A stretch of 60,849 nt of DNA, filler included, from Dugesia japonica (Eukaryota), in assembly GCA_001938525.1 (NCBI GenBank). It is 5 parts of 5 records of this genome, joined end to end, with 100 filler letters (N's around TTAATTAATTAA, not from the genome) between each part and the next. Parts side by side here need not be neighbours in the genome. Positions count along the whole stretch, not along the records: positions 49,955 to 60,849 come from MQRL01622172.1; 4 more parts are not named here. One strand, given 5' to 3'. A model generated the notes under the pieces. That model saw only the letters and a program-made list of their open reading frames with translations. It was not told the origin of the DNA and did no database searches. A program made the translations under genes and the position numbers. Of the stretch, positions 17,372 to 60,849 are shown piece after piece. Positions within the stretch are counted from its first letter, which is position 1. Every line of letters starts with the position of its first letter.

Positions 17372-17471
17372 NNNNNNNNNNNNNNNNNNNNNNNNNNNNN
17401 NNNNNNNNNNNNNNNTTAATTAATTAANNNNNNNNNNNNNNNNNNNNNNNNNNNNNNNNNNNNNNNNNNNN
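17372..17471. other. Artificial contig-join spacer (N44-TTAATTAATTAA-N44)
   Basis: Six-frame stop linker at 17416-17427 centred in an exact 100-nt gap. Confidence 0.95.
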
Positions 17472-27434: not shown

Positions 27435-27534
27435 NNNNNNNNNNNNNNNNNNNNNNNNNNNNNNNNNNNNNNNNNNNNTTAATTAATTAANNNNNNNNNN
27501 NNNNNNNNNNNNNNNNNNNNNNNNNNNNNNNNNN
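27435..27534. other. Artificial contig-join spacer
   Basis: N44-TTAATTAATTAA-N44. Confidence 0.95.
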
Positions 27535-28990
27535 CTGGGATTTTACCAGTTTCTCTAACATAAGACACACTATTTGCAGCTAAAACCCCTATATTCGCTA
27601 ACTTATCTATAAAAGGACTAAAAACAACTTTCTTCAAACAAAAAATATCGCTATCTACACTCGCTAAATCAGTTACTTCCTTTTTTCTCAAAATTGTAAC
27701 TGTATTCTCTAATATAACTCTTACTGTACACATTTGAGCCCTCTTCACACTTCTCGTACTATTATCTGGACCCTCGGATACAGTGCTCTAAAGTTTTCTG
27801 CTAACTCTCTTATTTTGGATATGAAAGGTACTTTTATTTCATCTACAGTTACACAGTCTAGTTTTGGTAAAATCNAAATNTTCATTTTTTTCATATCTCT
27901 TATTCCTATTATGACTTTTGGGAACAATTTATCTACAATAGTCATTCTAATTCTATTAGTTTTATTTCCCATAGTTACATTTATAAAAGAATATTCAATT
28001 ACCTTAATTGGTGAGCCATTTGCACATGTTAACGCCTTGTTTGATCGAAGCAGCTTGACTTTTTCTTTTTCTCTGATCATTTGAAATAGTTTGAAATCGA
28101 TGATGCTAGACTCTGCTCCAGAATCTATAAAAATTATCTCTTCTTCTTGTTCTACTTTGCATTTGATTATTGGTTTGTTTGCTGCGAGTTCGCTTCTTGT
28201 ATCTGATATCATTGTTCTTTGTCCTTTGTGAATTAGAAATTTGTGTCTTGAACATCGAATATATTTATCCAACTTAATAATATCGTCTGGGTAGTTGATA
28301 TTTATTTTTGTTTTTTCTTGTCTTTTAGTTTTCATTTCTTTCGAAACAATTTGGAAAAATTCATTATTATCTTCAGATTCGTTTTCATAATCACAACTGG
28401 CTTCATCATATTCAATATTAGAATTGTCATTTGTTTCTTCTAGTCTTCGAAAAGCTTCTTTCTGAATATTAGATCTTTTTGCTGCTTGGAAAAATCGAAA
28501 TATATGCCCGGCTTTGTTACAGTTCCTGCATAGCAATGGTTTGTTACAATATCGAGCAACATGACCTTTTCTGTTACAATTATAACATTTTAATTCTTGT
28601 TTGAACTTTTGAACTGCATACTTTGGAGAATATGTTTCATGGTTTCTTTCCAAATACTTTATACGATTTTCAAGCTCAATAATTTTTCGTTTTAATATTT
28701 CCATTTATTGCTATTTTTCTGTGTTAACATCATTGCTAATAATTCGCAATTTATCATTTTGTCGAGTTTTATCTTCTTTTTTTCAGAAAATTTCCGTGGC
28801 TCTGTCTGCCAAACGATTATTAACCCCTTTCAAAAATATTGATAAGAGAGTCTTTTCTCTATCAAATTCATCATAATCTGGCATTTNNNNNNNNNNNNNN
28901 NNTCTGATAGCAGTTAGATACTGTCTAAGAGTCATATCTTCCTGCTTCAAGGATAAAATATTAATTATTGGAGTTACCTTGGTTGACTAA
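27535..28990 (-). mobile_element. Ty3/gypsy gag-protease region
   Basis: ORF 27745-28704 carries the CYNCNRKGHVARYC knuckle, a second degenerate knuckle and the aspartic protease motif FIDSGAESS. Confidence 0.9.
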
Positions 28991-31589: not shown

Positions 31590-32735
31590 ATGAGGTTAAT
31601 TTAAAATTTTTAATTTTGATAATATTAATTTTGATTATCAGTGATTTTCAATTATTTATTGATTCAATTAAATATGATTCTGATGAAGAAATTGAAAATA
31701 AATTTAAAATTGAATTTCTAGAAATGGAAGATGTTAAAATAAATATAGAATAATTTTCATAAATAAGTATTTAAAAATTAGAAAGATTCGTGCCACCCTT
31801 TGCATCATGCATGTCGTTATGGTAGAATTGNNNNNNNNNNNNNNNNNNNNNNNNNNNNNNNNNNNNNNNNNNNNNNNNNNNNNNNNNNNNNNNNNNNNNN
31901 NNNNNNNNNNNNNNNNNNNNNNNNNNNNNNNNNNNNNNNNNNNNNNNNNNNNNNNNNNNNNNNNNNNNNNNNNNNNTGAAAATATTGATTGATAATAAAT
32001 GTGATATCAACGCACTTGATAAAGTGATTTATTTACTATATAATTTGTAAGTAATTGTTAATTTAGGTGGGAGATCAACCTTTGCACTTTGCTTGTGAGA
32101 ATGGTCATATTGATATTGTGAAATTATTGATAACAAACAAATGTGATATCAATGGCTTTTATTATGTACTTTTTGTTATTTACAAATAATACGTATAACA
32201 AAATGCTAATTTAGTGGCGGTATCAACCGATACATTTGGCATGTAAGAAAGGTAATATTGATATTGTGAAAATATTGATTAATAATAAATGTGATATCAA
32301 TGCATCTGATAAAGTAATCAATTTGGTATTTACTACAAGTTTATTAATATGTTTATTTAGTGGGGATGTCAATCAATACACATAGCATCTAAGAAAGGTC
32401 ATACCGATATTGTGAAAATATTGATTGAAAACAAATGTGATATGAATGCATCTGATTATGTAATTTATTTGTTATTTATTAAATAATTTATGAATAAATG
32501 ATAATTTAGTCGGGATATCAACCAATACATTTGGCATGTGAGAAGGGTCATATTGATATTGTGAAAATATTGATTGCAAATAAGTGCAAAAGAAATGTTA
32601 AGACAAAAGTAATTTTTTAACATTAATTATTACAAATATAATCAATAATAATCAAAGTATGGAGAATTACCAATCGATATTGCTAAAAATGAAGGACATG
32701 ATCAAATAGTTGATATTTTACTTAATGCTGATCCG
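31590..32735 (+). CDS. Ankyrin-repeat protein, one 33-aa repeat per exon; partly in an N gap, 3' end unresolved
   Basis: Inferred start ATGAG|gt at 31590, exon 31642-31732, then an exon from 31782 (HPLHHACRYG). These are followed by 99-nt phase-0 exons such as 32067-32165 (VGDQPLHFACENGHIDIVKLLITNKCDINGFYY) and a capping repeat YGELPIDIAKNEGHDQIVDILLN. Confidence 0.88.
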
Positions 32736-35800: not shown

Positions 35801-37059
35801 TCTAAATTTTCTATTTCAATAGAGAAAACTTTTATTATAATTAAATTAAATATCATTAAATTAAATTAAATTAAATTATATTATTTATGTAAGAGATGTG
35901 GTATTCTTGATATTTTGCATGCAGATTCTCTATATTTTGCATAAGATATTTTTTAAGATATTTTTTAAGATATTATTATAAGAAATTTATGCTTGGTATG
36001 GGCAGTCTTGATATTTTATAAGATATTATTACAAGATATCGGGCAGTCTTGATATTGTTTAAGATATTATTACAAGATATCGGACAGTCTTGATTGAAGC
36101 ATTATTGATTACTTCTTTATATTTTACTTTAGATGGCTCAGTCTTGATATTTTTTGTAAAAGATTGAGGTATTATTGATTTTTTTAAAAATATTTTTGCT
36201 TTAGATGGGAAAGTCTTGTTATTTTGCAAGGAATGAACAGTCTAAAATTCATAGGCACGTGATTTTCAGTGTATCTCTGTTGCATNNNNNNNNNNNNNNN
36301 NNNNNNNNNNNNNNNNNNNNNNNNNNNNNNNNNNNGTCTTGATTGAAGCATTATTGATTACTTCTTTATATTTTACTTTAGATGGCTCAGTCTTGATATT
36401 TTTTGTAAATGATTGAGGTATTATTGATTTTTTTAAAAATATTTTTGCTTTAGATGGGATATTCTTGTTCTTTTGCAAGGAATGAACAGTCTAAAATTCA
36501 TAGGCACGTGACTTTCAGTGTATCTCTGTTGCATCTGAGTTGCATACCTATTTCATTTATTGAGTTTTAAAAATCAAAATGGTGGCTATGTTGAGTTCTA
36601 AAAATTCTCAGACTTGTGATTTTCAGTGTATCTGTGTAGCAGCTGTAATGCTTCTGAGTTGCATTTATGAAAATATATATCAAAAAACTTTAAAGAGTGA
36701 TATTTACATAATAAAAATATAAGGTTTTATTGATTATTTTTTAGGTAAAGCACAAGCAATCGGTGGTATATTCTAATTTTTTTCTGCTAATATATTATGT
36801 ATCAATTTTATTAAAATTAGCTTGCCATCAATTAATATCATTAAAACAATTACATTCAGTANNNNNNNNNNNNNNNNNNNNNNNNNNNNNNNNNNNNNNN
36901 NNNNNNNNNNNNNNNNNNNNNNNNNNNNNNNNNNNNNNNNNNNNNNNNNNNNNNNNNNNNNNNNNNNNNNNNNNNNNNNNNNNNNNNNNNNNNNNNNNNN
37001 NNNNNNNNNNNNNNNNNNNNNNNNNNNNNNNTAAATTACAACAATAAACCTTATCAATC

Positions 37060-37629
37060 GGAAACAGATAAACTTAATGAATTAAAATCAAACTTTGAAA
37101 ATGAAAATGTAATAAGATATACTGCACCACAAAAGTCACAAGAGGTATATGTAATAAATGGAGATACTCCTAGACCTACCATGACAATATCAATAAATAG
37201 ATATAACATACCTTCATTAATAGATACTGAAGCCGCATGCTCAATAATTAAAGAGGTATTCCTTAACAAAAAACAACAAGAGAATCTTGATACGAGACTC
37301 TCAGAGGAATTAAAATCATTCACGGGTCACAAACTACCTATAAAAGGGATAATAGACTGCAATATTACCATAGAAAATGAAAATATACAACACCCTTTCC
37401 GAGTTGTAGATCAAGGGGTACAAGATTGAATTTTGGGGATGGATTTATTATCAAAATTGACAGGATATGTTATAGATTTACGAAATAATAAATTATCAAA
37501 ATCAGCCCCCATAAATAATGAAAAAGCAAATAACGATTTATATCTAAAGTCCAATGCGAAAATAAAATATTCATGCGAATGTATAATGCCTGTAAAATTA
37601 GGGTTCAGTAGTGAAAATACTTACTTTTT
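37060..37629 (+). mobile_element. LTR retrotransposon protease remnant
   Basis: IPSLIDTEAACSII (DTGA-like) ... LKSFTGHKLPIKG ... *ILGMDLL. Confidence 0.75.
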
Positions 37630-37729
37630 NNNNNNNNNNNNNNNNNNNNNNNNNNNNNNNNNNNNNNNNNNNNTTAATTAATTAANNNNNNNNNNNNNNN
37701 NNNNNNNNNNNNNNNNNNNNNNNNNNNNN
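37630..37729. other. Artificial contig-join spacer
   Basis: N44-TTAATTAATTAA-N44. Confidence 0.95.
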
Positions 37730-38703: not shown

Positions 38704-39660
38704 GTTGGTCAATCGTCACACGTGGAAGTCGCCAAATTTAGTCCGGACGGTCAATATCTGGTTACTGGAACATTAGATGGATTCATTGAAGTTTGGAATT
38801 TCGTTACTGGCAAAATTCGTAAAGATCTCAAATACCAAGCCCAAGAAAACTTCATGATTATGGAAAAAGCCGTTCTGAGCCTCGGTTTCAGTCGTGATTC
38901 AGAAATGCTTGTTGCCGGCTCTCAGGACGGTAAAATCAAAGTGTTCCGAATACAAACCGGACAATGTTTGCGTAAATTCGAGAGAGCTCACGTGAAAGGC
39001 GTTACGAGTGTTCAATTCTCGAAAGATGGAACGAATATCCTGTCGGGGAGTTTCGACAAATCTGTTCGTATTCACGGAATGAAATCCGGCAAGTTATTGA
39101 AGGAGTTCAAAGGGCACGCTTCATTTGTCAACGATGTTATTTACGCACCGGATAATCAACACATAATCAGTGCGAGTTCTGATGGTACTCTCAGGCTGTG
39201 GTCGCTGAAAACCGGAGAAGGCACGATCTGGCGGGCGTATTCTGGGCTGGTGGGACAGGAGGCACCGATTCACACGGTTATGCCGGTCCCCAGGAACACA
39301 GATCAGTTCATTATCAGCAACAAGACCAACACTGTCGCTATTATCAATATTCAAGGACAAGTAAACCGTTTCTCTATGGATTTGATGAGTTAAAATCGAT
39401 TTTAGATTGTCAGGAGTTTCTCGGCACCGAAACGAGACGGATCGAATTTCGTATCGACCATCATCAGTCCGAAAGGCGAATGGCTCTATTGCGTTGGGGA
39501 GGACAAATTGTTGTACTGTTTCAATTTAATGGTCGAGAACAAGTTGGAAAGAACCATTCCGATTCATGATAAAGATGTTATTGGACTTGTTCATCACCCC
39601 CATCAGAACTTGATTGCGACTTATGCTGAAGATGGCTTGCTCAGATTATGGAAACCGTGA
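38704..39660 (+). CDS. SMU1: WD40 repeat spliceosomal protein SMU1, last two exons (38704-39360, 39406-39660), 5'-partial
   Basis: [40 protein letters not shown]... and the terminal [22 protein letters not shown] match recalled SMU1. 45-nt GT-AG intron; AATAAA at 39681. Confidence 0.96.
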
Positions 39661-44660: not shown

Positions 44661-45106
44661 AATATTATTTGTTGGACGTAACCATTGATCGTAATTCAAA
44701 TAAAAGAAAAAAATAAATTTTACTCAAAATAAAAAAAATTGTTAGTAATAATGATAGTCAATTCCTAAAGAAAACAAAGTCTATATATAAAATTATTATC
44801 AAAAACAAAAAAAAAACAAATTTTGATCGAAGCTTTTATTTTAATGAATTCTAATATTAGAACTTCAGGCACTTTTTAAATTTACAAACAAAAATATTTT
44901 GATGTACAACAACTGTAAAACAAAACTTACTAAAAACATAATATACCTATTTTTACTGCATTTTAGCCAGACTGTATAACTAGGTTTTGGTGTACATATA
45001 TATTTTCATAATGATTAATAATCAAATTATAAAGTATATTGATGTGTAAAAATGTAATAATATATTGATTGCTAAAAATGTTTTAAATATTAAGCCTTTG
45101 TGTAAA

Positions 45107-48100
45107 ATGTCGAATAACAAAACAAATAATTTCTCTGTTATAGATGTTGATAAGAATTGTGTAAAAGCAAATGTGTCAGAAGATCAACGACCTTTAATAA
45201 ATTCCGGAAGATATAATGTTAAAAAAATGCCGGAATTACGAAAAACACACGCTAATCAAAGTAATACATTATATGGAGATGGTCATCATTTACGTCATCA
45301 GAATCACACTTCCACTGATCCGATTCTTAAAAACCGTTATAAATCCTATGACTATTTGCCAGCGAGGCAACCTCATATGAATCATTATAAAGGTAACACT
45401 CATTTTTATCAAGACGGATACAATGAATATAGTGATTCTGGAGGTGATGTCAATGAAACGTCTTATGAAGCACTTAATAAATTTCGTAAATCTTATTCAT
45501 ATGGTGGTATGAAACCATTTTCTTCAAATGAGGAATTGGATAATTCTCACATGTACGATGTTGAACCAAATCATTCATCCGATAGTTCAAGACGATATCA
45601 ATACAAGTCTAGGTGTTTCAAAGATAATCATAATGATTATCATAGAAAGTCTCGACATGCAGAATTTGAAAATAGAAAATATACTGGCGATTCATGGAAT
45701 TATGAAAATACTTCGAACTATCAAGATCCTCAAAGATATTCAAGATATTCTCCTGTAAATACATACATAAAAGGCCAATGTGAATCGAGAGTTAAACATA
45801 ATACAAGAGGAACTAGTTATCCAAGTTATCTTAATAACAACAGAAGTGATACTTTATCCAGAAAATCACATAATACTCCATTATCAACAGAATTTCAATC
45901 ATCTAGATACACTGACGTTAATAATGATAACTATTCTACTTATTGCAAGGAATCTCCAAATAGAAATATGCTAAGTCTGAAATCTACTTACAGAAAAAAT
46001 GAAAACATTCCTCATTCTGGTACAAAACTAGAAAATCATAGGAAACATTTTGATAAATATTGTACAGGACGAACTAGGGAAACAAGATTCAACGAATCAA
46101 ATAATTGTGATGATTTACGAAGGCATAATTCCATGATTGTAAACAAATCTAGTAAAGGGTTTAGATCAAATCTACCACCTTCACCTAAATATTCAGCTAC
46201 AAGAAAGAAATACAGCGATCTAGGAAATATTGAAAGTAATAAATATGGCAGTAGAGAAACTTATACCACACCTCGTCGATCACAAATGTTTTCTAATGAG
46301 CGTGGTAGTGACGAAAGTTGCTATTTTGAGAATTGTTATAATACTAATAAGTAAGTTAATTTTTTGATGTTTAATTTTGATAAATTTAGAAATAATTAAA
46401 TCATTTAATTTTTAAAAATAAATTTTCAATTTTTGAAATCATTAAATTTAAAAAATAAAAACATCAAAATTTATTTTTTATTGTCCATAATCTTTGTTGA
46501 TTATTTGATTTTCAGATTTTCACTTTTTTTCTCAAGGAAATTAAAATTTTTGGCTTACATTTTTTAATTTTATTGAAAATTAAAATAAAAAGAATATTGG
46601 TTAATCCAAAATTTTTTAAAGAAATAATTATAATTATAAATACATTTTATCGTAGTTAAATGATAAATTATCGTAACTGTGGCAAGGGGAGAGATAAGTT
46701 TTAGCAAATTTAAAATCATTAAAAATTATTTGCGTTTCTTAATGAAACAAAATCGTGGAAGTGGATTAGCTATTTTATAAATTGAATATGATTTGTTTGA
46801 AAAAACAAATTTCGATAGCATAATAAACGAGTTTGCTAGCATTAAAGTAAGAAAAATTAAATTAAAATGCTAACTATTGGGTTTGTAGAAATGATTTAAT
46901 TTGAAGTTAATACATGTTGAATATATGAATAAATATGTATGTTGAATTTATAAATAATTTATCTTTATACCTTGTTTTTTTATAACAATTTAAATAAGTC
47001 AAAATTAAAAATTTTAAATCAATTTTTTGTATAAGGGGTCATCCATAAATGATATCACACGATTTTTGGATAATTCTTTACACCCCACCTTCTCACACTT
47101 AGTCACAAAAAGTCAGAACCCCTCAAATATGACGTCAAACATTTATTTCTANNNNNGAAAATTTACAGGTTCCAAATTAATATTTGTCATCCTTTTTAAT
47201 TAATGAAAGACAGAGATAGCGATGTTCAGCCCAGAGTTGTGTCCAGCCTCAAATATGCTTCCCTGATGCTCAACAGTGCACTATTTGGCTCAGGTAGAGA
47301 AATATATTAAAATAGTTAAAATTCAATACTCTCATTTATTTTGATGTGACATCACATATCTTAGAACCCTCTCGCACCTCGTCACAAATGTATGAACCCC
47401 CTCCTCTAATCGTGTGACATCATTTATNGATGACCCTTAATGCATATTACATAGTTATGATAGAGTGTGCCATTTTAAATGTTTGTCATAGGCGCCATAA
47501 ACTCTAGATATGGCTCTGATGATAATTAAATGAAATGGAAGTTATATTAGTCAATAATTTGAAATTCAATACAACAAAATTTATTGATTTTTATCCTTAA
47601 ATATAAGTGATTTTAATTTAAATAAATTTAAGATAGAAATTTAAAATTTTAATTCACAAATAAAATAAATAAAAAAATTAAAATTAGAAAATTTCTTAGT
47701 TATAATTTTCTATATTATTCTGAGTTTGTACAATGTAGACATTGTTTAATTTTAAAAATCTGGTTTTTAAGTCCATTAATTATGTTAACAATTTTCATGA
47801 AATTTTTACCCCTTCCCATTTGTCAGTAACTCTCAAACTTTTAGTGACCCTCTAATAAAATTATGTCAAAAAAGTTTATTCCTACCCCCTAAATTAATAA
47901 TATTTTAACTAAATATTTTGATTTGTTAAATTTATCGTAAAAAATTGTTGATGTCAATTTATCTTGAGCACCCTCCTCCCTATTGTCAACAATTGTCAAA
48001 TTTCTTCAAACCACGCCGATTTTGTTGAAATAATTTATGGAATGTCCTTTCTATTTACATATTTTATATTAAATAATAGTAAATCTTTTAATTTAAGAAT

Positions 48101-49712
48101 TGTTTTTTAAATCTATTTTTACTATCTTTCCACATGATAATATTGATCTGTTAATAACATATAAGATAGCCAAAAAATTGCCGTTTTTAATTTTTTTATA
48201 GATATCACAATAATACAAGAATATAATATACAATACAGTATTTAAATGAAATAGCAAAAATTAATTCTCTTATCAGAAATACAGTTCTCATTACACTCGA
48301 TAACATCGTCAGGATCTTTCAGCAACTTCTTTCATTCATCTCGCATCGTATCAGAAGACAAATTATTGAAANATTCCATTAAAGTTTGCTCAAGCTGCAC
48401 ATAATTCTGAAATGTTTTATCCCTGCGATATATTTTCATACCAGTACAGAATTCCGTAGCAATCTGTTTTACTCTTCTATCTTTAATCATATAATTTTCT
48501 CCCCATACATTTATCAAGTATAGCGAAAAATCAGCAGCGGGAAACCCCCTGTGTTCCATTTTTACAGTAAAATAGTTTAAATATTCTAAGTGCATTAATG
48601 GCATATTTGAAATCTGAGACAATTTTTTACAATAATGATAAACGAAAACGAGATGACTTTTATAAATATGATATTTTATTATATATTAATAAAAAGAATT
48701 AACAATTGCAATTTTTGCGAGAATAATTGTTGGACATAACCATTGATCGTTTTTCAAGTCAATTCCTGACAAAGACAAAGACGAAAATTAGAATTATTAT
48801 CAAAAACAAAAGAAAAGTTTTGATCNNNNNNNNNNNNNNNNNNNNNNNNNNNNNNNNNNNNNNNNNNNNNNNNNNTAATTGTTGGACATAACCATTGATC
48901 GTTTTTCAGAATTCATTTAAAATAAAAACTTCGATCAAAATTTGTTTTTAGGTTTTTGATGAAAATTCTATATTTCGACTTTGTCTTCCTCAGGAATCGA
49001 TTTTTCAATTCATTTCAAGTCAATTCCTGACAAAGACAAAGACGAAAATTAGAATTATTATCAAAAACAAAAGAAAAGTTTTGATCGAAGCTTTTATTTT
49101 AAATGAATTTTAAAAATTTGGTTAAAAATAAATCAGTTTTCAATTAAAGAAAAAGTTATTTAGGAATAATTATTCCTTNNNNNNNNNNNNNNNNNNNNNN
49201 NNNNNNNNNNNNNNNNNNNNNNNNNNNNNNNNNNNNNNNNNNNNNNNNNNNNNNNNNNNNNNNNNNNNNNNNNNNNNNNNNNNNNNNNNNNNNNNNNNNN
49301 NNNNNNNNNNNNNNNNNNNNNNNNNNNNNNNGAGTTTTGTCCTAATAATTTATTCATATTTCTTGTTGAATTACCAACTATTGTTTTTAGTGATTGTGTC
49401 TCAAGATATCACAGAAATACTAAAAGAACAAATAAAGATTATTGTGGATCAAATTCTGATGAATTGAGCTCGTCTAGTTTAGTTCTGTCGCAAGAGAAAC
49501 CAACAGAAAGTATAGCACTATCAATATCTTCTCCCAAATTAAATTCAAATATCAAATCACTTAATCAAACCTTTCATCGATCAAGTAATTATAGAGATGA
49601 TTCCACAATACCATCAACACATTTATCAAAATCTTCCCGCGGAAAGGAATCACACATGTATTGTAATCATGCACAAAAATCTTCAAGGCATAACAATAAA
49701 AAGCATCATTAA
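45107..49712 (+). CDS. Hypothetical 521-aa low-complexity S/N/R/Y/H-rich protein, two exons (45107-46350, 49391-49712)
   Basis: A 1.24-kb stop-free frame in very AT-rich DNA ends at a strong AA|GTAAGT donor. A phase-compatible acceptor tttttag|T at 49390 continues with the same composition to TAA. An extra exon inside the N gaps cannot be excluded. Confidence 0.7.
46670..47518 (+). mobile_element. hAT transposon 3' remnant (dimerisation domain), interrupted by a MITE
   Basis: KIIKNYLRFLMKQNRGSGLAIL*IEYD...IINEFASIKVRK; candidate right end ...TAGATATGGCTCTG. Confidence 0.75.
47035..47437. mobile_element. PIF/Harbinger-type MITE
   Basis: 30-bp TIRs GGGGTCATCCATAAATGATATCACACGATT / AATCGTGTGACATCATTTATnGATGACCCT, flanked by a TAA direct repeat. 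Confidence 0.85.
48715..49115. repeat. Penelope-like pLTR fragments in inverted arrangement
   Basis: The AATAATTGTTGGACATAACCATTGATCG motif also occurs at about 6743, 27331 and 44667. Hammerhead-bearing segments face in opposite directions (48965 minus, 49023 plus). Confidence 0.65.
48965..48997 (-). ncRNA. Minimal type I hammerhead ribozyme motif in a Penelope-like pLTR
   Basis: Minus strand ATTC-CTGAGGA-A-GAC AAA GTC-GAAA-TA-TA-GAAT: stem I ATTC/GAAT, CUGANGA core, stem II GAC/GTC, GAAA, vestigial palindromic helix III. Confidence 0.65.
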
Positions 49713-49854
49713 ATCAATTCATTGAGTTGTATAATAATAATTTGGATTCTAATTCCATATTTGATGTCAACAATGAATTTTATTTTTTGACAATAAAAAT
49801 TTCTATTATATTATATGTAATTTATGTAGTTTATGTAATTTATTATTATAGGTT

Positions 49855-49954
49855 NNNNNNNNNNNNNNNNNNNNNNNNNNNNNNNNNNNNNNNNNNNNTT
49901 AATTAATTAANNNNNNNNNNNNNNNNNNNNNNNNNNNNNNNNNNNNNNNNNNNN
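49855..49954. other. Artificial contig-join spacer
   Basis: N44-TTAATTAATTAA-N44. Confidence 0.95.
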
Positions 49955-51565
49955 ATTAAAGGTGGTGGCTGCGATTTGCCTGAGCACTCTAGCCCCGATC
50001 CCTTTGTCCCAGATCTTGATATCGCTGCTGACAAAGTAAGGGATTTTGCAAACAGTCTCATACCTAGTAACCAATATCTTGTCGCCGATTTAGCGCTTTC
50101 AAAGGCTTGCATCCACATGGATGATGATTATATCACCGATGTGGTTGCTTTCAGAGACTTCAAATCTCTTTCGATGATTTTCTGCCCCTTCCTGGCCTCG
50201 GCCCTCTTTGTCTTTGATATTGCTGGCAAGGTCTCTTACTTTATTGACCCTTAGGCTGATCATGGTGGTGTGGTCGCAAATGAGACAGTTCTCTGACTCC
50301 ATCTGTGCATGTCTGAGTTCTGTCGCACAAAAGACATCACCCTGATCGAGGCTCCTTTCACTCTGACTACTTTCCATAGAAATGACAAAGAAAGTAGTCT
50401 GATGGTCTGTGGCTACGTCAGCTCGCTGTCGAATTTTAAAACAGTGAACAGAGTTGACTAAGCCCGCCTAAGGGTAAAATTCACAAATTTTAATAACACC
50501 CATAAAATTAAAGGGGACATTAAAATTAAAGGGAGGGATGAAAAACATGGCGCTAATAAAACTACTCAGGGTAAAATTAGCGACATGTTATCCACAATCG
50601 ACAGAAGTGATGTTAATTCAGCTGTAGACTCATTCTACAGCTTTGTTCACTCTGTTCGATGTATGAGGCCCAAAAATTTGAATTTTAAAATTGGCGAGGG
50701 CAAAACTGGAAAGCGCGCCGAGTTAGACATAAACCTGCGAGATCGGTTNNNNNNCTCACAGAAAGCAGTCTTTGAGCTGATTACAAATGAAGTGACAGCT
50801 GACTGCTTTCCATCGTAGGTTGATCTCGAAGGGTATTTCCAGTCTAAAGCTGATGCTGGACCCCTTACTAACTGGGATTTTCGCCCCCCTCATAAAATCT
50901 GACGAGGATGGTTTCGAATTCCACTGTCCGGATGCACCTCAAATAAGACGCATATTTTATGGACTATCTGTGTCAGCTCCTGGTCTTAATAACATCACAT
51001 ACCAGGATCTGAAATCCGCAGACCCAAAATGTGCTCTTATTCACCAACTTTTAAAGAAGATCTTATCTTCTGGTGTCACTCCGAACAGCTAGAAAACATA
51101 CTCGACGCTGATGATTCCGAAGCCAGGCAAAGCTGGGTCATACCATGAAGTCTCATCATGGTGACCCATTGCTTTGCTGGATTGTCTGTACAAACTCTTT
51201 ATGGCTTGTCTGACATCTCATTTGTCGAGTTGGGTGATGAGGGAGAAACTGCTACATAACCTCTATAAAAGTGCTGGTGAGTTGGAAGACTGCTGCGAAC
51301 ATAATTTTCTGCTGCGATGTCTGCTGGATGAGCCGAGCCGATATTTCAAGTTAACTTGCATATTGGCTTCCTAGACATTGCGGATGCTTTCGGCAGCATC
51401 ACCATAGAGCACATTCTTGGTCTGCTCACCAGAATGGGTGTCTATGAGAGTTCCATCAAACTGATACGAGCTCTTTACTCCGACTGCTCCAGCTACTACA
51501 CTTGCAATGGAACTTCCACTAGTCCCATTGCAAACAAAAGAGGCGTCCGACAGGGTTGTCCCTGA
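49955..51565 (+). mobile_element. R2/NeSL-like non-LTR retrotransposon ORF remnant, truncated in RT
   Basis: APGLNNITY (SPGxDG-like), LMIPKPGK...W*PIALLDCLYKLF, CCEHNFLL, FLDIADAFGS, RGVRQGCP. Contains stops and frameshifts and ends abruptly after QGCP. Confidence 0.85.
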
Positions 51566-52859
51566 CTTAAGCAAAAAAGAGTGTCAACAAATCTATAAAT
51601 TTTGAATTCCGCTAACTTACTACAAGGATATTGATTCAAGTTTTGAAAAATAACCACTATAATCAGCCACTATTAAATCAAGTAGTTAGTTGAAGACACA
51701 AAATTTGTTTTCACCATTAAACAATTCACTTTAGAAAATACATTGATTCCAAAGAGATTGAAAAAAGAGATCATAGTGACAACTAAACGGAAAACCAGTT
51801 AATTCCTCAAGATAAAAGAAAGAAGTGATTAGCCTCACAAATTATTCATCTCCAGGTTTCCAATATTTACCCGTTGCAGAATCAAATTTTAATTAAAAGT
51901 AAAAATTTGTGTATCATTTATATTATAATGTTGTGTCTGTTATATATAATAAATGTTATTTAGAAAATAAAATATATTACGTTATAATAAGAGAAAAATC
52001 AAGTTAATGATTGAATTAAAATACCAAATTCACGATTAGTTTTATTATTATCCAATAAATATCCCACTGCTTTCTTTTTATCCTAGATTTCATAAATTCC
52101 AAAGCGACACGAACCGTCTAATACATTAATTCCACCACCAGAGAAAATAATCGTGAATAAAATTTTTTTCCTTGATAGGATAGAGTAAGACGACAATATC
52201 ATCTCGCAAATTTATGCTCCTGCGAATATTGTATGAATGTTAATGGTGACGTGTTATCTAGAAAAATATCTTCCACCTATCCACTCTAGTTGAAAATTGT
52301 GGATTTTGTGTCAGTAAATCTCTTATAGACTTGATCAACGATAGATATCCTTGTTTGCTCAATCAGAGTCAAAAAATGATAGTTTGGCTGATACACGATG
52401 GGTATCTGATGACTAATATTTACGTTCTAATGAGTGTGTGTGCCACCGGTAGTTGAAAGTCAAGGAAAATTTTTGTTTAACTGAGTTGCCAAGCAACCAG
52501 GCTGCGTGCAATTTCAAAAACCTAATAGCAGTGATGTAATAAGTAGTAAGCTTCATATGATCGCAATAATCGTCTATGACTTCGATATTATTATTATCGC
52601 TCTTAAAAACGTTGTTATATTTACTAGCTCCCTCAGTATTATGGTTAATATCACTCTGGCTATTACCATCACAACCCGTCACTATTTAGCGTTGCTAATC
52701 TTTACTATCCACACTGCTATTAGCAGGGCTATTTTTATTAATTCAATATTTAGTAGGGATATCCTTTAATTATGTTGATTATTAACGGAATTGTTGTCAT
52801 TATGGTTACCAGCGGTAGTATTATTGACTCTATCTTAATTATTACTATCATTATCACCA

Positions 52860-52867
52860 TTAACATA

Positions 52868-52935
<68 letters not shown>

Positions 52936-52985
52936 NNNNNNNNNNNNNNNNNNNNNNNNNNNNNNNNNNNNNNNNNNNNNNNNNN

Positions 52986-53022
<37 letters not shown>
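52860..53022. repeat. (ATT)n microsatellite inside cassette copy A
   Basis: Direct reading; same relative position as the tract at 55760-56110 in copy B. Confidence 0.9.
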
Positions 53023-53265
53023 CGTTTTATCACGGGTAACATTTGGTTAACATTATCGTCCCGTCTAAGATAAGACAGACTATGACGCGACAAACCATCT
53101 TAAATTCCTAATAGGGATCAATAAGTATAAGATACAGTTAACCAGCAAGCCAAGAGTGCGTTGTGTGAACGAATTATTTTATAAATAAAAATCAGCAGTA
53201 ATGATGCGGTAGTTTATAGGAATTTGAATCACGAGTCTGATTTACCCTTCGTTTTTTCTATTTAG

Positions 53266-53462
53266 TCATGTCAACTGAGTTACGTCGTACCCTTCAATGG
53301 ATAAAAAGGCAACGTCAAACTGTTCGGGTAAGACAGCTCATTGCTCATTTGTTGACTAAGGGGAGGATTGAACACCCAGATGTGACCGATCTTTGCTGTT
53401 TAGCGGAGAAGTTTCCCTCCATGGTCCCCGTAGATCTAGATGCAGAAAATACGCCTTTCTAG
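53266..53462 (+). CDS. Cassette A ORF1: small basic protein with a DLCCxxE motif
   Basis: Acceptor ttctatttag|TC; homologous to 56413-56609 with many synonymous differences. Confidence 0.7.
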
Positions 53463-53590
53463 CCGGAATGTACTTTGCTACTTATTGTTATCCGTGTAAA
53501 TATAATTAGCCTTGTTGTTTATTCTTCCAATAATACTTTTTTTAAAAGAAATATATACCTATTAGGAATTAAACAAATTTTTTTTATTAG

Positions 53591-53935
53591 GAATGGAGTC
53601 TATCTGGGAGAGTCGTCGATAGGAGAACTCGTCGAATAATCTTTCGAAGACACCACAACCCGCACAATCGGGAAGCAGGCATCTTGGCCGACAGGTCTAA
53701 TTTGCCTCCGGTAGAGTCTATAATATCTCGTATAAGAGATTTTGGGGAAAGACAGTAGTACAAAAACTGGACAGGACCTGCGACCTCCTTCCACTACCAA
53801 GCTCCACCTCCACTTCCAGCTCCTGCGGTACAAGCTTTTATAACTAACCTACTCTGGGGAGTTAGGGAACTAACAGGGGTGACGGACATTGAAAACACCG
53901 CCCCTAGTGTTAACAATAATGTGAATTCCCAATGA
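53591..53935 (+). pseudogene. Cassette A ORF2 (frameshift near the start and an internal TAG)
   Basis: ttattag|GA ATG GAG TCT ATC TGG. Aligns with intact 56764-57117 (DRRTRR, HNPHNR, ILADRLN, QAFIxNLLWG). Confidence 0.75.
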
Positions 53936-54090
53936 TGTTTGTCTTGTGGTTACAAAATAAATTAATAGGTGTCTTAATTATTGTCAGTCTATGTTATGTT
54001 TACATATGTTTGATAAGCTAAAATTTCGTTGATTAAAGAGTATCCTACTAGGCTTAGTAGTAATCAGATTTTAAAAAAATAATATTTTAG

Positions 54091-54449
54091 TGCAATCCTC
54101 CCTGAAAAAATCCCAGGCTCCACATAAAAAGCTACGTGAAACAAGTGAAGACCTGGAACTCACATGGGATCTTTATAGACTAGCTAAAAGGCGATGGGAA
54201 GCGGAGACCGCCGTGGCCGAGTCTAAGGTGAGACGCTATAAGCTGAAATGTCTAACCTTTAAAGCAGAGATGGCGGCCACCCAGAATCAAGAGAGCGTGT
54301 GGAAGTCCCAAGTCGAAACTTTTGCCACGATTATCATATCTTACCAAGAGCGTGAGAATCAGCTCTTCGATAATATATTGAAGTTACGGGCCGCTATTCC
54401 TTTAGCCCCCCTCTTGATCGATAAAGGTACTCAGACTAACCGCTCCTGA
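54091..54449 (+). CDS. Cassette A ORF3: coiled-coil protein with C-terminal KGTQT
   Basis: Acceptor attttag|TG with no ATG at the 5' end of the exon; homologous to 57360-57718. Confidence 0.72.
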
Positions 54450-54565
54450 GTTAACATATCTACTATTTTGTTGCTTTTAATAAATTATTTTATTTGTATC
54501 TTTTCTAATTTGTTTCTCCAATTTCAAACTTGATACTCGCCAACTTAACTATAATTTTTATTTAG

Positions 54566-54945
54566 TGACTCGAATTAATTTCCCCAACAGCATCCGAAGG
54601 TGCCATCGTATTATGCGACGTCTTCTTATTGAGAGACACCTAAAACATAAGGCGGATAGGGCCATATTAAAACATTTAGACCAACGAGATCAACTTATAA
54701 AAAGATTGGATTTGGTAATACATAAACAAAATGACTTAGCAATCCAAACCAAAGCCCTAGAGGCAGAGAACAAGAAGTTACTGTTGAGAAAAATAGATTT
54801 CTTAAAACAGTATATCGCGGATCTTTCCCGACAAATTGGGAATCCAGCTTGGATTCACTGGAATGACGACAATGTCACCGCTTTCAACTTTACAATGGAC
54901 GAACCAGACCAATGGCTAGATCCTAGCGTATTAAACGACCTATGA
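54566..54945 (+). CDS. Cassette A ORF4: basic region, coiled coil and acidic/aromatic tail
   Basis: Acceptor tttatttag|TG; homologous to 57850-58055. Confidence 0.72.
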
Positions 54946-55008
54946 ATGTTATGTTAGTAAATATTCCGAGAAACATTGGTTTAACTTTTTGTGAAAAATA
55001 AGGGAAAA

Positions 55009-55188
55009 TATTGAACCCGAATGCAAAGGTTTGTGGGCGCGCACCTCCTATTAAGAGTGAGGTCAACCAACATGAACTGAATACCTACCCTAGAGGCAGT
55101 AGGTTAAATTCTTGAACGGGTTCCCCTGAGGGCTGTTTTTACCTCAGCCGCAATTTGATTACCCTCCAACTCAGGTGGAACCCCAACA
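55009..55188 (+). mobile_element. Putative 3' LTR (180 bp) preceded by a polypurine tract
   Basis: AAGGGAAAA followed by TATTGAACCC...GGAACCCCAACA. Homologous copies at 58113-58246 and from 60702 (minus strand). Confidence 0.7.
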
Positions 55189-55759
55189 AGTTTATTATAT
55201 TGAACCACGTCAAGTTCATAATTATCATCGCTCAATCGAGAATGTAATTCAATACCGGTGTGTCATGCAGCGTGTTTAGACGATTTGGACACTGGTAGTA
55301 TCTGAGCATGTGTGTATCACCTGATCGATGAACGAAAATATCCAGGTAACCAAGCAACTATGTTGCGCGGTAATTTAAACCTCGGATTTCACTTAATTTA
55401 ATAGAAATGTGATTAAATAAGTTTTTTCATTAAGTATCAGTTTGAGGGGTGAAAACATTCAAAAATCATTATTATAACATCACAAGTTTAATAAATTTTA
55501 CGGAATACGATTACTTCGGTTAATAAGTATATTGTTAATACTATTATTAGTATTATTGGCTTTCTTAACATTGTTCCTGTTCATAGTATTTTAATTAGTA
55601 CTATTCAAACCTAGTTATTATTTATTATTATTATTATTTATTATCCCTCTTATTGGTAGGGGTATTATTATTAATTTGACTATTAGTGTTACTATATCTA
55701 TAGTTAGGTTGATTATTATTATTATTATCATTATCCTTATTACCCTTGGTATTGTTGTT

Positions 55760-55765
55760 ACCATG

Positions 55766-55805
<40 letters not shown>

Positions 55806-55956
55806 NNNNNNNNNNNNNNNNNNNNNNNNNNNNNNNNNNNNNNNNNNNNNNNNNNNNNNNNNNNNNNNNNNNNNNNNNNNNNNNNNNNNNNNNNNNNNNN
55901 NNNNNNNNNNNNNNNNNNNNNNNNNNNNNNNNNNNNNNNNNNNNNNNNNNNNNNNN

Positions 55957-56014
<58 letters not shown>

Positions 56015-56110
56015 GTTATTATCATTATTACTATTATCAATGTTATTGTTATTATCATCATTCTTATTATATGATTGTTATTATTATTATTATCATTAAT
56101 TATATCGTTA
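55760..56110. repeat. (ATT)n microsatellite inside cassette copy B
   Basis: Direct reading; includes an N gap. Confidence 0.9.
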
Positions 56111-56412
56111 ATATCATTATTACTGTTGTTGTTGTCATTATTATTGTCAGTATGATCACCGAAATTCATAGATCATTATCCCTCATAAGAAAACAAAGTA
56201 TTTGGTTGTCCTTACCATCGTTACGACGAGTGTTATAAATACTATTAAAATCCCAATAGCGACCATTAAGTCTAAGCTAAAACTATTTAGTAAACCAATA
56301 TCGCAGTATGGGAATGAGCCGTTATATTGATAATATTCGGCTCTAATGTTAAAATTGTTCTGTAGGAGTCTGAACCACGAGTTATGATTTACATTTCATT
56401 TTCTCTATTTAG

Positions 56413-56609
56413 TCATTCCAGTCGAGTTGTATCACACCCTCCGATGGATAAAGAAACAGCGTCAAACCGCTCGATCGAAACAGTTAATCGCCCACCTATT
56501 AAACAAGGGAAGAATTGAACACCCGGATGAAACAGATCTTTGCTGTTTCACGGAGATGTTCCCCTTAGTGACTTTAGTGGACTTAGATGCGGAGAGCATG
56601 CCTTTCTAA
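56413..56609 (+). CDS. Cassette B ORF1
   Basis: Acceptor ctctatttag|TC ATT CCA GTC GAG... with no 5' ATG. WIKKQRQT...QLIAHLL.KGRIEHPD.TDLCC is conserved with copy A. Confidence 0.7.
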
Positions 56610-56763
56610 ACAGGAGTGTAATTCGCCCATGACCGTTAATGGGCTAAAATAAATTATTGATTCGATTAATTCTATTTGTTGTTTATTATTATTAACATTA
56701 GTTAATCAAAAAAAAAAGATGATTATAGACGATACTTTAAACCGAATTCCTGTTAATTATAGA

Positions 56764-57117
56764 ATGGACTCCATCTGGGAAAGGGTGATAGATAGAAGAA
56801 CTCGTCGACTAATCTTACGAGGATATCACAATCCACACAATCGGGACGTGGGAATTTTGGCTGACCGATTAAATTTTCCTCCGGTAGAATCTATCGTTGA
56901 ACGCATAAGAGATTTCGGCGAGCGACAACGATACCGAGCATGGACAGGCCCTGTTCGCACCCTGCCAACACTTTTCCAGTATCAGCCTACAATGCCACCC
57001 CCAGCTCCCGCAGTGCAGGCCTTTATCTCTAACTTGCTCTGGGGGATAAGAGAGCCTTCGGATAGCGAAGACTCGGAAAATACCACACCCGTACCGGATT
57101 CATCAACTCCTCCTTAG
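56764..57117 (+). CDS. Cassette B ORF2: Arg-rich N-terminus, Pro-rich middle, acidic Ser tail (117 aa)
   Basis: attatag|A ATG GAC TCC ATC TGG; intact frame, homologous to copy A ORF2. Confidence 0.72.
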   Translation: MDSIWERVIDRRTRRLILRGYHNPHNRDVGILADRLNFPPVESIVERIRDFGERQRYRAWTGPVRTLPTLFQYQPTMPPPAPAVQAFISNLLWGIREPSDSEDSENTTPVPDSSTPP

Positions 57118-57359
57118 TGATTAAGATGTGTGACCTATAACTTATCTGGATGTTATGTCCTTGTTTAAAATATATGTTCGATGTTCTGCGTAAATTTTAA
57201 GAGATTTTTTGTTTATTCCTCGTTCACAAGTCATTTTCTAGGTTTGTGAATCAATTTGGGTGGTTTAGAACTTAATAATCAAATTTGTGACTACTGTGTC
57301 GTTTTAGAAACTTAAAGTTATGAGAGTTATTGTCGAGATATATATATTTTTCTTTTTAG

Positions 57360-57718
57360 TGCATTCCTCGTCCAACCGTCCTCCCGCCCCTACTAAGAAA
57401 TTCCGAGATACCAGTGAAGAGCTCGAACTCACTTGGGATTTATATCGACTAGCCAAACGTCGATGGGAAGCTGAAGTAGCCGCGGCCAACAGTAAGGTAT
57501 TACGTTATAAGAAAAAATGCGCCCTCTTTAAAAAGGAAGCAGAAGCCTCACATTCCCAGGAGCGCCTTTAGAAGAGACAAGTAGAGTCTTTCTCGGAGAT
57601 GATCTGGTCCAGCCACGACCGAGAAAATAAACTGGTTAGCGATATTTTACTCCTTCGGGAAAAAATCCCTCTCGAGCCGTTAATGATCGAGAAGGGCACC
57701 CAGACCCCCAAAAGCTAG
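57360..57718 (+). pseudogene. Cassette B ORF3 (internal TAG at 57569 in place of TGG)
   Basis: Acceptor tctttttag|TG. Homology to copy A continues past the stop to LMIEKGTQTPKS*. Confidence 0.75.
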
Positions 57719-57849
57719 TCATTTGGAAATATTTTCTCTTTGTTAATAAACTTATTGTTCAACTTTTCTTATGGATTCCGTTATTGTTTTAATGTTTGCT
57801 TGAGATCTGTGGTCGAGCGCTGGTACATTTAACTTATCTTATTTTTCAG

Positions 57850-58055
57850 TGCCTCACATCAACTTTCCCAATAACCTCCGTAGGTGCCACCACATCATGC
57901 GCCGACTTCTGATCGAAAGACATTTGAAGCGTAAGACAAACCGGGCTCTGCTTAAGCATTTGTCTCAGAGAGACAGATTGATAAAGAGGTTAGACCTAAT
58001 CGTGAAAAAGCAGAGTGATCTCGCAGTTCAAGTGAAGGCCTTGAACGTATTGTAA
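57850..58055 (+). pseudogene. Cassette B ORF4, 3'-truncated relative to copy A
   Basis: Acceptor atttttcag|TG. INFPN..RRCH.IMRRLLIERHLK is conserved; similarity stops after KAL. Confidence 0.7.
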
Positions 58056-58112
58056 TAAACGTTTCCAGTGTAACTGAAAAAGATTTGAATGTTAGTATAA
58101 GATAAGGGAAAA

Positions 58113-58246
58113 TGATGAACCCAAATCATGAAAGGTCAAGAGGTCAACCACCATAAGTTGAAGACCTAACCTGGGGCGTTAGATTAAATTCTTGAAAGGG
58201 TACCAGCCACCATGATTTTTCACTCAACTCAGGTGGAACCCCAACA
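58113..58246 (+). mobile_element. Putative 3' LTR (internally deleted copy) preceded by a polypurine tract
   Basis: AAGGGAAAA followed by TGATGAACCC...CTCAGGTGGAACCCCAACA. Confidence 0.7.
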
Positions 58247-59699
58247 CTATTATTCAGTAATTTAATTTAATTGTAAATGTTGCGTTCTGAATCTAAACAC
58301 ACACATATAATATAACATAGCATGCAGACATACAAAGCAACATCTTTCAGAATCAATGTACGAGCCAACACAAGATCAGATCAACCAATCTCACAACCAA
58401 TCTCAAAAACCAAAGCAATAAAACAATTCTATTTTGTGAATTAATCGGAAACATTTGTTTATTCTTATTTCATTGGAAACATTCGCTTTATTTTAATCTG
58501 AGACATTTAATTGAAAACATTGTTTTATATTATTGTGAATATTTATTTTATACTTTAATTTTATTTTTATTATGAATAGTTATTTTATGGATAAAATTNN
58601 NNNNNNNNNNNNNNNNNNNNNNNNNNNNNNNNNNNNNNNNNNNNNNNNNNNNNNNNNNNNNNNNNNNNNNNNNNNNNNNNNNNNNNNNNNNNNNNNNNNN
58701 NNNNNNNNNNNNNNNNNNNNNNNNNNNNNNNNNNNNNNNGAATCCAACCTCTCTGGGCGGCATTACTAGTTCGTAATCTAATATATTGCTTCTAAGTTGT
58801 AGAGTGTTGACATTTATATTTGATATACATCAAAAATAAAGTTTTATAAAAGGTATTGCTTAATCATTTATATAAGGCATATACAATATATCACCATATT
58901 TATAAATTGTCGTAATTATCATTTATATAATATTGTATTCACATAACGAAAATACAACATTCATAAAATCAATAAAAATATTTACTAGATATAAAATAAG
59001 CGAACCATAAAATCTTTTTGTTGAGTTGTAATACCCAACATAAAAATTCTATTTTTTTCTTGACATCGACCATTTTTATTTAAGATTTTTATTCACAAAT
59101 TTTAAATACGCATAGAGCCTTAAAAACTACAATTCTGGTGTAATTTTAAACAAACTTGTTGGGCTATAACAGCTGGAAAAGAGAAATAAAGTATGATAAA
59201 TAATGAGATCGGTAATTTAAATAGCAGTACGAAAATTTTCACTTTAAATGTATGCTTGATTGATTATGATTACGATGATGATGATGATGATTATGTCTAT
59301 TTCGTCTATTAGCGGTGTGATTTACTAACATAGTAGGCACTTGTTTATAAAATAATAAATTTCTGTTATTATGTAGCTGATTAGAGAGCCTTAGAGGATC
59401 TACCTTAGTTTTACTCCATTGTTTGCACCAGGCCTACAAAAAGTTAATCCGGCACTGATTAACTAGAGGGAGCTGGTTTCCCTCTTGCATCACTTTTGTT
59501 TCTATTAATCAAGGAAGCGGAATAGCTTACTCAGATCAAATTTTATTTAGATACCGATTTCATAATTATTTAACAATATTACTGTTTAATTTTTTCCAAA
59601 CGACAAAAAATGCATCAAATTAAATCCTTTTTACTGACGTTTTATGAATGTTGTTTTAGCACTAACCGAGACTAATAACAAGAAGACTTGATAACTAAT

Positions 59700-60600
59700 T
59701 CAATAACCTATACCAAATAAATTTGTAATGATTTGGGAATAATTATGGGACATCGATGTAGAAAGAAAACACGAATGACTGGTGAAAAATGAAAGGATTT
59801 AGGATTGCCATAAAGTATTAAGTAAAGGCGAGAAAAATTTTCCTCGTTGGATAATGGGATTCAAGAAAAAACTTTGAGATTTTAACAGCTTCATGTTCTT
59901 GCTGATAAATATGCTTTTTTTTAAACCGTTGAATCTTTTAAATGAAAATTATGAGTGACGTCTAAATAAATAAATTTGACTATATTGACCAGGAGAAATT
60001 TCTCGTAGACAGAAACTGATTGCAACATTTTGTTGTTGATGCTGCTAAGCAAACTAAAACAGAAACACAGATGGAAAGTCCTTATAAAGTTTTGCAGTTT
60101 ATTCAAAATTATAGTCTCAATGTCAAATATTGTTATATTCTTGAGAATTTTCCTCATTATTGTTGCTAGTGTAGACACTTGAAAGAGGAGTTTCTCAAAA
60201 TTAAAATTACTCAAAACCTATTTAAGATCCATTATGAGTAGCTTGTGGTTAGGAAATCTTGCTATACTCTCTATAGAACACCAGCTGACAGAGAAGATAG
60301 ACTTTGACGATGTTAACGAGGATTTCGCAAACATGAAAGCAAAAAAAGTAGTATTATACCGTTAAAATGATCTTTTTGCCTTTTTGTATTTTTGCATAAA
60401 TTTATTTCCTTTTAATTTTTATTTTATTTTTACTTTAGATGTTTTTCACTAAAACAAAACATTTTTTAATGAAATATTTTTAAGAAGAAAATTGTTTTTA
60501 TAGTTTTGACTTTTTGTAAATATAAATAATATATATTTGATTGAGGGGCGTCAAATTTTAGGGACCTCCCCAGGCGGAATATACCGTCGCTACGCCACTG
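59700..60600 (+). mobile_element. hAT transposon 3' remnant with right terminus
   Basis: RSFSKLKLLKTYLRSIMS...LGNLAILSIEH...FANMKAKK dimerisation domain; terminus GCTACGCCACTG (CAGTGGCGTAGC-type TIR). Confidence 0.85.
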
Positions 60601-60701
60601 ATTTTTACGAATGACAAGCTAGCTACGAAGTCATACTATGATATCAGAAATCTACATAAATGCCAAGGTCACATTAATATTCCAAAGTCTTCTAATACAA
60701 T

Positions 60702-60849
60702 TGTTGGTGTCCCACCTGAGTTGAATGACGAAAACGATGGCTGGGGAAAAGCAGCGCTCAGGGTAACCCTTTCAAGAATTTAGATACACCGCCCCAGGGT
60801 GGATTTTCAGTTTATGGTGGTTGACTTCTCCGTTAATGGGAAGTGCGCG
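60702..60849 (-). mobile_element. Third copy of the same LTR, opposite strand, cut by the window end
   Basis: Reverse complement reads ...GTCAACCACCATAAACTGAA...AAATTCTTGAAAGGGTTACCCTGAG...CAACTCAGGTGGGACACCAACA. Confidence 0.75.

Follow-up and report, generated by a model that had tools for sequence, protein, structure and literature searches.

The stretch of DNA analysed here (hereafter the window; 60,849 nucleotides of Dugesia japonica, assembly GCA_001938525.1) contains two diverged copies of a repeat that carries a cassette of four small open reading frames (ORF1 to ORF4). Copy 1 occupies 53100-55188 and copy 2 56245-58246; they are 67% identical across their first 800 bases and are neighbours only across a (TTA)n assembly gap. 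The third frame, ORF3, is our subject. In both copies it presents, near its C-terminal end, the sequence I-[D/E]-KGTQT, which has the form of a docking motif for the dynein light chain LC8. LC8 is a host hub protein with over 100 clients, and there is ample documentation that exogenous viruses hijack it by way of a TQT motif. The features of ORF3, all on the plus strand, are as follows.

54091..54449, plus strand: ORF3 of copy 1, open for 118 codons after a TG directly behind a T-rich acceptor-like site (...TTTAG)
54126..54137, plus strand: basic patch KKLR (KKFR in copy 2), ORF3 residues 12-15
54153..54206, plus strand: block of 18 residues (ORF3 residues 21-38) without a difference between the copies, the best-conserved part of ORF3
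54417..54440, plus strand: LC8-type 8-mer IDKGTQTN of copy 1 (core 54423-54437)
57360..57718, plus strand: ORF3 of copy 2, 61% identical to copy 1, with an in-frame stop at 57569-57571
57686..57709, plus strand: LC8-type 8-mer IEKGTQTP of copy 2 (core 57692-57706), downstream of the internal stop

ORF3 and its C-terminal motif

Translation gives the C-terminus PLLIDKGTQTNRS in copy 1 (stop 54447-54449) and PLMIEKGTQTPKS in copy 2 (stop 57716-57718). Within KGTQT, the codons for K, G and both T (positions -1 and +1) differ synonymously between the copies and the Q codon is the same, i.e. four of the five codons show silent differences. The C-termini, the motif positions and the differing codons are thus as the initial annotation had given them. 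Its statement that the motif is kept in both copies is true of the sequence but overstated, since copy 2 cannot be translated past its in-frame stop, which lies 46 codons ahead of the motif. Because of this stop, which the initial annotation had overlooked, ORF3 of copy 2 is dead and the motif there is a relic.

From position -5 to position +2, the motif reads I, D/E, K, G, T, Q, T, N/P; its TQT anchor stands at -1 to +1 in both copies. We checked it against flank rules taken from PMC6607443 and PMC3078936. According to PMC6607443, binders have a polar residue at -4, a large or basic one at -3, no aromatic at -2, a strand-breaking and non-hydrophobic residue at +2, and no internal Pro. Both copies of ORF3 have a polar -4, a large or basic -3, a non-aromatic -2, a non-hydrophobic +2 and no internal Pro, and the changes between them (D/E at -4, N/P at +2) remain in the allowed classes. 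In PMC3078936, the natural LC8 consensus is [D/S]KX[T/V/I]Q[T/V][D/E], Gly or Ala is selected at -2, and Val or Ile at -5 raises affinity: the dissociation constant (Kd) is 0.07 µM for Ac-VDKSTQTD vs. 5.6 µM for Ac-DKSTQTD. The same paper places LC8 motifs in disordered segments with flanking coiled coils.

The rarity of the motif was estimated post hoc. In the whole window, which has 121,694 codons over six frames, the pattern [KR]xTQT occurs three times, and the ORF3 pair accounts for two of them. Among 60,000 shuffles pooling the 413 residues of the four ORFs of copy 1, it appeared in 1.4%, and a full rule-conforming 8-mer in 0.04%; TQT alone turns up in 4% of ORF3 shuffles. Outside residues 21-38, KGTQT is the sole identical run of five residues in ORF3. 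The tail around it (residues 102-115) is identical at 11 of 14 positions, vs. 18 of 40 for residues 61-100 (one-sided Fisher test, P = 0.03; segment also chosen post hoc). In simulation, the probability that KGTQT would be retained neutrally ranged from 3.5e-5 to 3e-3.

Ahead of the motif, ORF3 is laid out as the basic patch, the identical block, a heptad repeat up to about residue 102 and a Pro-containing linker. The basic patch at residues 12-15 was already recognised in the initial annotation, and we take it to resemble a monopartite nuclear import signal. The heptad repeat is continuous, with a hydrophobic fraction at the a and d positions of 0.77 and 0.73 vs. a background of 0.44 and 0.40 (P = 0.0004, 5,000 shuffles each). 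In an AlphaFold2 model built from the two-row alignment, a single helix spans residues 12-102 and residues 103-119 have no secondary structure; the mean predicted local distance difference test score (pLDDT) is 83.7, with 69 and then 52 in the tail. The helical core suspected earlier is also what the model and the heptads predict. The motif lies in a predicted disordered segment, adjoined in this single-chain model by the heptad periodicity and one long predicted helix. No signal or membrane segment was evident by eye in ORF3.

Between the two copies, the proportion of differing synonymous sites (pS) in ORF3 is 0.72 and that of nonsynonymous sites (pN) 0.30, third-position identity is 0.39, and the ratio of nonsynonymous to synonymous rates (dN/dS) is about 0.16. 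By these codon comparisons, ORF3 evolved under purifying selection. Neither copy of ORF3 starts with an ATG, a point absent from the initial annotation, the first in-frame Met being at residue 60 and residue 80.

Proposed LC8 docking and its alternatives

We propose, with a probability of about 0.6, that ORF3 is a small gene kept by purifying selection in a likely long terminal repeat (LTR) retrotransposon, and that its product combines a predicted coiled coil of about 90 residues with a probable LC8-binding tail through which LC8 would clamp an ORF3 dimer. That the KGTQT tail binds LC8 at all, under this proposal or under either of the two other LC8 readings weighed below, is quite probable judging from the sequence. 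A near-ideal docking motif on a predicted coiled-coil protein makes it likely that the element borrows LC8 to pair its protein, in the way of several viruses. ORF3 would be expressed from a spliced RNA, an upstream exon supplying the start (phase 1, possibly as a split A/TG). The ORF3 helix would then pair as a parallel two-stranded coiled coil, and the motif would enter the LC8 groove as a beta-strand, with 2:2 stoichiometry and avidity. The LC8 dimer would clamp the two tails, stabilising the parallel ORF3 dimer. The clamped dimer would act via its conserved basic and aromatic N-terminal half, and the nucleus or the RNA of the element would be its most likely place of action; the invariant basic and aromatic block suggests a nucleic-acid or protein partner.

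The initial annotation had presented ORF3 as a retroelement protein that recruits LC8 for dimerisation or trafficking. LC8 recruitment is well supported at the sequence level, by the position rules, the selective retention of the motif and its site in a predicted unstructured tail directly behind the heptad-repeat helix; the retroelement part is inferred from the high copy number and the LTR-like ends, and no reverse transcriptase (RT) or integrase is linked to the cassette. Dimer clamping fits the anatomy of ORF3 better, and trafficking fits it less well. A single motif beside a coiled coil is indeed the usual dimer-clamp layout (PMC3078936).

Several observations weigh against this proposal. 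The letter-by-letter reading covers only two copies, one of them a pseudogene. Both keep KGTQT (2 of 2), and beyond them the conservation of the motif in the family is gauged from depths and numbers of contigs. A given 5-mer would be kept 7.9% of the time at the average identity of the ORF, and 1.8% at that of its C-terminal half. The linker PLxPL[LM]I is likewise conserved, so the tail is possibly kept for another partner. In copy 1 the +2 residue is N, not the favoured D, E or P, and many TQT peptides fail to bind LC8 (PMC6607443). The predicted template modelling score (pTM) of the ORF3 model is 0.41, from an alignment of two sequences, and the class of the element is not proven. As for expression, in three raw-read RNA runs (6-25% of each) none of 63 reads was at least 95% alike to copy 1, no splice joint was seen, and almost no reads covered the motif (RNA depth at the motif bin at most 0.14).

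Among the alternatives, the one that survives best is that KGTQT matches by chance and LC8 is uninvolved, the tail owing its conservation to something else, such as a TQ site for phosphorylation, an RNA-level signal or a different partner. We judge it unlikely, while taking it seriously: the entire 102-115 segment is conserved, the reading covers no more than two copies, and the choice of this motif out of many possible short ones was made post hoc, with TQT alone being as common in shuffles as given above. The synonymous changes at four of the five codons argue against an RNA-level constraint on the motif. Moreover, the checked position rules hold in both copies with flank changes in allowed classes, and the strict pattern has a shuffle rate of 0.04%.

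A different role for LC8 binding, along the lines proposed for foamy virus Gag, would be to couple particles or RNA of the element to dynein, which would carry them to the centrosome or the nucleus. The LC8 groove that clients occupy is also the one used by the dynein intermediate chain, which argues against such a link, and ORF3 is a small protein of its own for which no match to a capsid family was obtained. Prototype foamy virus (PFV) Gag does bind LC8, via its coiled coil CC3, a region that capsid traffic to the centrosome requires (PMC3705263); the basic patch of ORF3 could bind RNA. With one motif adjoining a coiled coil, i.e. the dimer-clamp layout of PMC3078936, we find transport improbable.

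Least probable of all is that ORF3 serves as a decoy, drawing LC8 away from a host silencing complex whose dimerisation depends on it and weakening transposon silencing: LC8 is abundant in cells and hence hard to titrate, and the invariant 18-residue block suggests a function separate from the motif. LC8 is also broadly distributed (PMC6607443), and the literature searched returned no LC8-dependent silencing complex in flatworms, only papers on ciliary dynein. The idea draws on Drosophila, where LC8 (Cut-up) dimerises the PICTS complex of PIWI-interacting RNA (piRNA) silencing via motifs in Panoramix and where transposon control depends on LC8 (PMC7861614), on the silencing of planarian LTR elements by SMEDWI-2, a nuclear PIWI protein (PMC8532177), and on the high-affinity features of the ORF3 motif.

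The cassette, its element and the window

The other features of the two repeat copies are given below.

52869..53022, no strand: (TTA)n tract with assembly gap, upstream of copy 1
53268..53459, plus strand: ORF1 of copy 1, with its own ATG; 64 aa; the acceptor-like AG in front of it ends at 53265
53593..53935, plus strand: ORF2 of copy 1, with a frameshift near 53608 and a stop at 53756-53758
54566..54945, plus strand: ORF4 of copy 1, 125 codons after an AG/TG junction; basic, then Leu-rich
54994..55008, plus strand: purine-rich, polypurine-tract-like stretch, common to copy 2 (58098-58112)
55009..55188, plus strand: LTR-like terminal segment of copy 1, ending in CAACA, with very high summed contig depth
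55712..56145, no strand: (TTA)n tract with assembly gap, upstream of copy 2
56413..56606, plus strand: ORF1 of copy 2, without a start ATG
56764..57117, plus strand: ORF2 of copy 2, open, own ATG
57850..58055, plus strand: ORF4 of copy 2, truncated by a deletion
58113..58246, plus strand: LTR-like terminal segment of copy 2, TG...CAACA
60702..60849, minus strand: third copy of the terminal segment, cut off by the end of the window

Each of the four ORFs begins just behind a T-rich tract and an acceptor-like AG. ORF3 and ORF4 start with TG immediately after this AG in both copies (54091, 54566, 57360 and 57850) and, having no nearby ATG, need an upstream exon; an exon ending in A would possibly complete their ATG. 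A split env start codon, with one part supplied by an upstream exon, is described for the springer subclade (bioRxiv 10.1101/2023.08.03.551782). We rejected a flatworm spliced leader as the source of the ATG, because, by eye, an ATG added intact at the acceptor would not share the ORF3 frame. Between the copies, pS and pN are 0.77 and 0.18 for ORF1, 0.68 and 0.18 for ORF2 (dN/dS about 0.11), and saturated and 0.18 for ORF4. Judged by selection, the four ORFs are real genes. Both copies are partly decayed, copy 1 by the frameshift and stop in ORF2, copy 2 by the ORF3 stop, the missing ATG of ORF1 and the truncation of ORF4. By eye, ORF4 (54566-54945) is bZIP-like, a basic stretch being followed by a Leu-rich, helix-like one, with no Pfam bZIP match. 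Upstream of ORF1, an ungapped block of 114 bases (53093-53206 and 56238-56351) is about 64% identical between copies and possibly regulatory. It shows no codon periodicity (0.66/0.63/0.63), which leaves a plus-strand ORF0 or an antisense Asn-rich gene there unsupported. The degenerate (TTA)n regions (52480-53022 and 55340-56145) have Asn-rich minus-strand frames with many stops.

After ORF4, the order is a purine tract and then a 130-180-base segment ending in CAACA, found three times in the window. All three segments have the CAACA end; the purine tract leads into TA in copy 1, and into TG in copy 2. From its high copy number and LTR-like ends, the repeat is likely an LTR retrotransposon, an assignment that stays unproven because neither a target-site duplication nor a linked pol was found. 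No paired 5' LTR occurs in the window, and no convincing target-site duplication lies next to a TG start. RT, RNase H and integrase gave no Pfam match in six minus-strand read-throughs upstream of or overlapping ORF1, the plus-strand frames being inspected by eye only. The missing gag-pol is weak evidence, because (TTA)n assembly gaps cut both copies. We tentatively read the cassette as a 3' accessory region before a short LTR. A Penelope pseudo-LTR was dropped as a candidate, with no hammerhead and nothing credible in Rfam (49000-60849). Compared with shuffles, the terminal segment has only a slight folding advantage (z = -1.7); a GGGTTCC...GGAACCC stem lies within it (55094-55179).

The repeat is dispersed at high copy number. 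In run X2, 3,818 contigs fall on 2.6 kb of copy 1, and the 72 bases around the motif are matched at 80% identity or more by 200, 180 and 146 contigs from three genomic-type runs and by 9 from one run guessed to be RNA; such contig counts, like summed contig depths, are not copy numbers. Summed X2 depth ranges from 1,140 to 5,889 over the ORF3 bins, vs. 176,240 over 55094-55179. It peaks at 11,371 on the motif, about tenfold above the mean of 1,140 in the preceding 86-base coding bin, and exceeds the next-highest ORF3 bin 1.9-fold. This peak is largely not an edge effect, because the profile matches the bin means of a longer mapping. Loose contig ends cluster up to 54408 and from 54451, and similarity breaks off just past the stop. 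Set against individual contig depths (about 3-35), the summed values suggest cassettes in the hundreds and ends in the thousands. The cassette is far less abundant than the terminal ~100 bases, a difference that may reflect solo short LTRs or an end common to many families.

Searches for relatives of the cassette proteins gave no confirmed match. For ORF3, one candidate of near length was found, not significant at E <= 0.01, and none of 730 candidates of longer length from its alignment reached E <= 0.1; ORF2 gave two candidates, none confirmed. HMMER against 1.84 billion representatives yielded no match at E <= 0.001. Searches for loci in metagenome and viral contigs returned 158 and 35 pattern matches, respectively, none confirmed, and the terminal 22-mer was absent from both collections. 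Three PDB sequences matched ORF3 at chance level (all E >= 0.86), Pfam gave weak matches only, below cut-off, for ORF1 to ORF4, and in the Atlas ORF3 scored at best 0.92 (unlabelled clusters, recognition 1672, weak) and ORF4 0.82. The collections searched may simply lack Dugesia japonica repeat proteins, and a repeat library in a supplement or Repbase may already contain the element.

The window is AT-rich (GC mostly 15-32%), gapped DNA of animal type. Paired 44-N runs around a 12-base spacer (TTAATTAATTAA at 49899-49910) occur at 17372-17471, 27435-27534, 37630-37729 and 49855-49954; these are scaffold joins, and the window is therefore possibly several unlinked pieces. It also contains a host exon of the spliceosomal WD40 protein SMU1 (38704-39393, plus strand; E = 2.6e-94 to SMU1 chains). 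A decayed non-LTR-type element (49955-51560, plus strand), seemingly unrelated to the cassette, includes part of an RT (Pfam RVT_1, E = 1.6e-4) and breaks off abruptly behind GVRQGCP. Gypsy-type fragments lie at 27745-28704 (minus), 36845-37429 (plus), 18976-19356 (minus) and 22177-22650 (plus), and include a zinc knuckle and protease (Pfam), as well as an Asn-rich linker with a protease-like part and two RT-like pieces (by eye). A low-complexity frame rich in Ser, Asn, Arg and Tyr (434 codons, 45050-46354, plus strand), without Pfam match, is probably a large host exon, and a 146-bp tandem array of about four copies (31977-32575) stands beside an assembly gap.

Known systems and significance

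The P proteins of rabies virus and human parainfluenza virus 3 (HPIV3) and VP35 of Ebola virus (PMC8615749) combine, as is predicted for ORF3, an oligomerising coiled coil with a nearby TQT-type motif. They are polymerase cofactors of negative-strand RNA viruses for which LC8 binding is shown, whereas ORF3 is a predicted client only; unlike them, it has about 119 aa, no sequence relative, and a motif three residues from the C-terminus, and is encoded in a genomic repeat. EML3 and the phage-selected peptide VSRGTQTE (PMC3078936) share with ORF3 a beta-branched residue at -5, a basic one at -3, Gly at -2, TQT and an adjoining coiled coil (predicted in ORF3), and residues 8-94 of EML3 bind LC8 with a Kd of 50 nM (PMC3078936). 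EML3 is, in contrast, a host microtubule protein, and ORF3 has D/E at -4 and N/P at +2. PFV Gag (PMC3705263) is a retroelement protein that uses LC8, as we propose for ORF3, but it is a capsid polyprotein binding through CC3, with no TQT named in the part of that paper available, whereas ORF3 belongs to the small accessory ORFs and its motif is linear and canonical. In titles and abstract openings of a partial literature, we found no transposon-encoded protein with a TQT-type LC8 motif, foamy virus Gag being the nearest.

Extra element genes, as in the cassette, are present in Cer1 (CERV; PMC10309623), in the planarian element Burro/GYPSM1 (PMC6431247) and in springer (env; 10.1101/2023.08.03.551782). 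Spliced expression is a feature of CERV of Caenorhabditis elegans Cer1 (PMC10309623) and of env, and the giant polyprotein of Burro/GYPSM1 comprises domains of Gag, BIR, BCL2, ankyrin, env and pol type. Unlike these elements, the cassette has a row of four small ORFs, every one preceded by an acceptor-like site of its own and without a family match; it has no shown gag-pol link, and the available parts of those accounts mention no LC8 motif. CERV of Cer1 (PMC10309623) may serve as a functional analogy only for ORF3. The far-reaching view of a flatworm retrotransposon with a spliced accessory cassette like that of a complex retrovirus, one gene of which evolved a high-affinity LC8 motif, possibly as an anti-silencing decoy, is in our opinion a long shot.

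The finding alone concerns one motif in one orphan protein. On the far-reaching view above, the element would hijack the hub by which the piRNA silencing machinery of flies is dimerised. If LC8 binding is true, the motif would provide the first molecular handle on the accessory cassette of a very abundant repeat family, and the mimicry of host short motifs would extend from viruses to genomic parasites.

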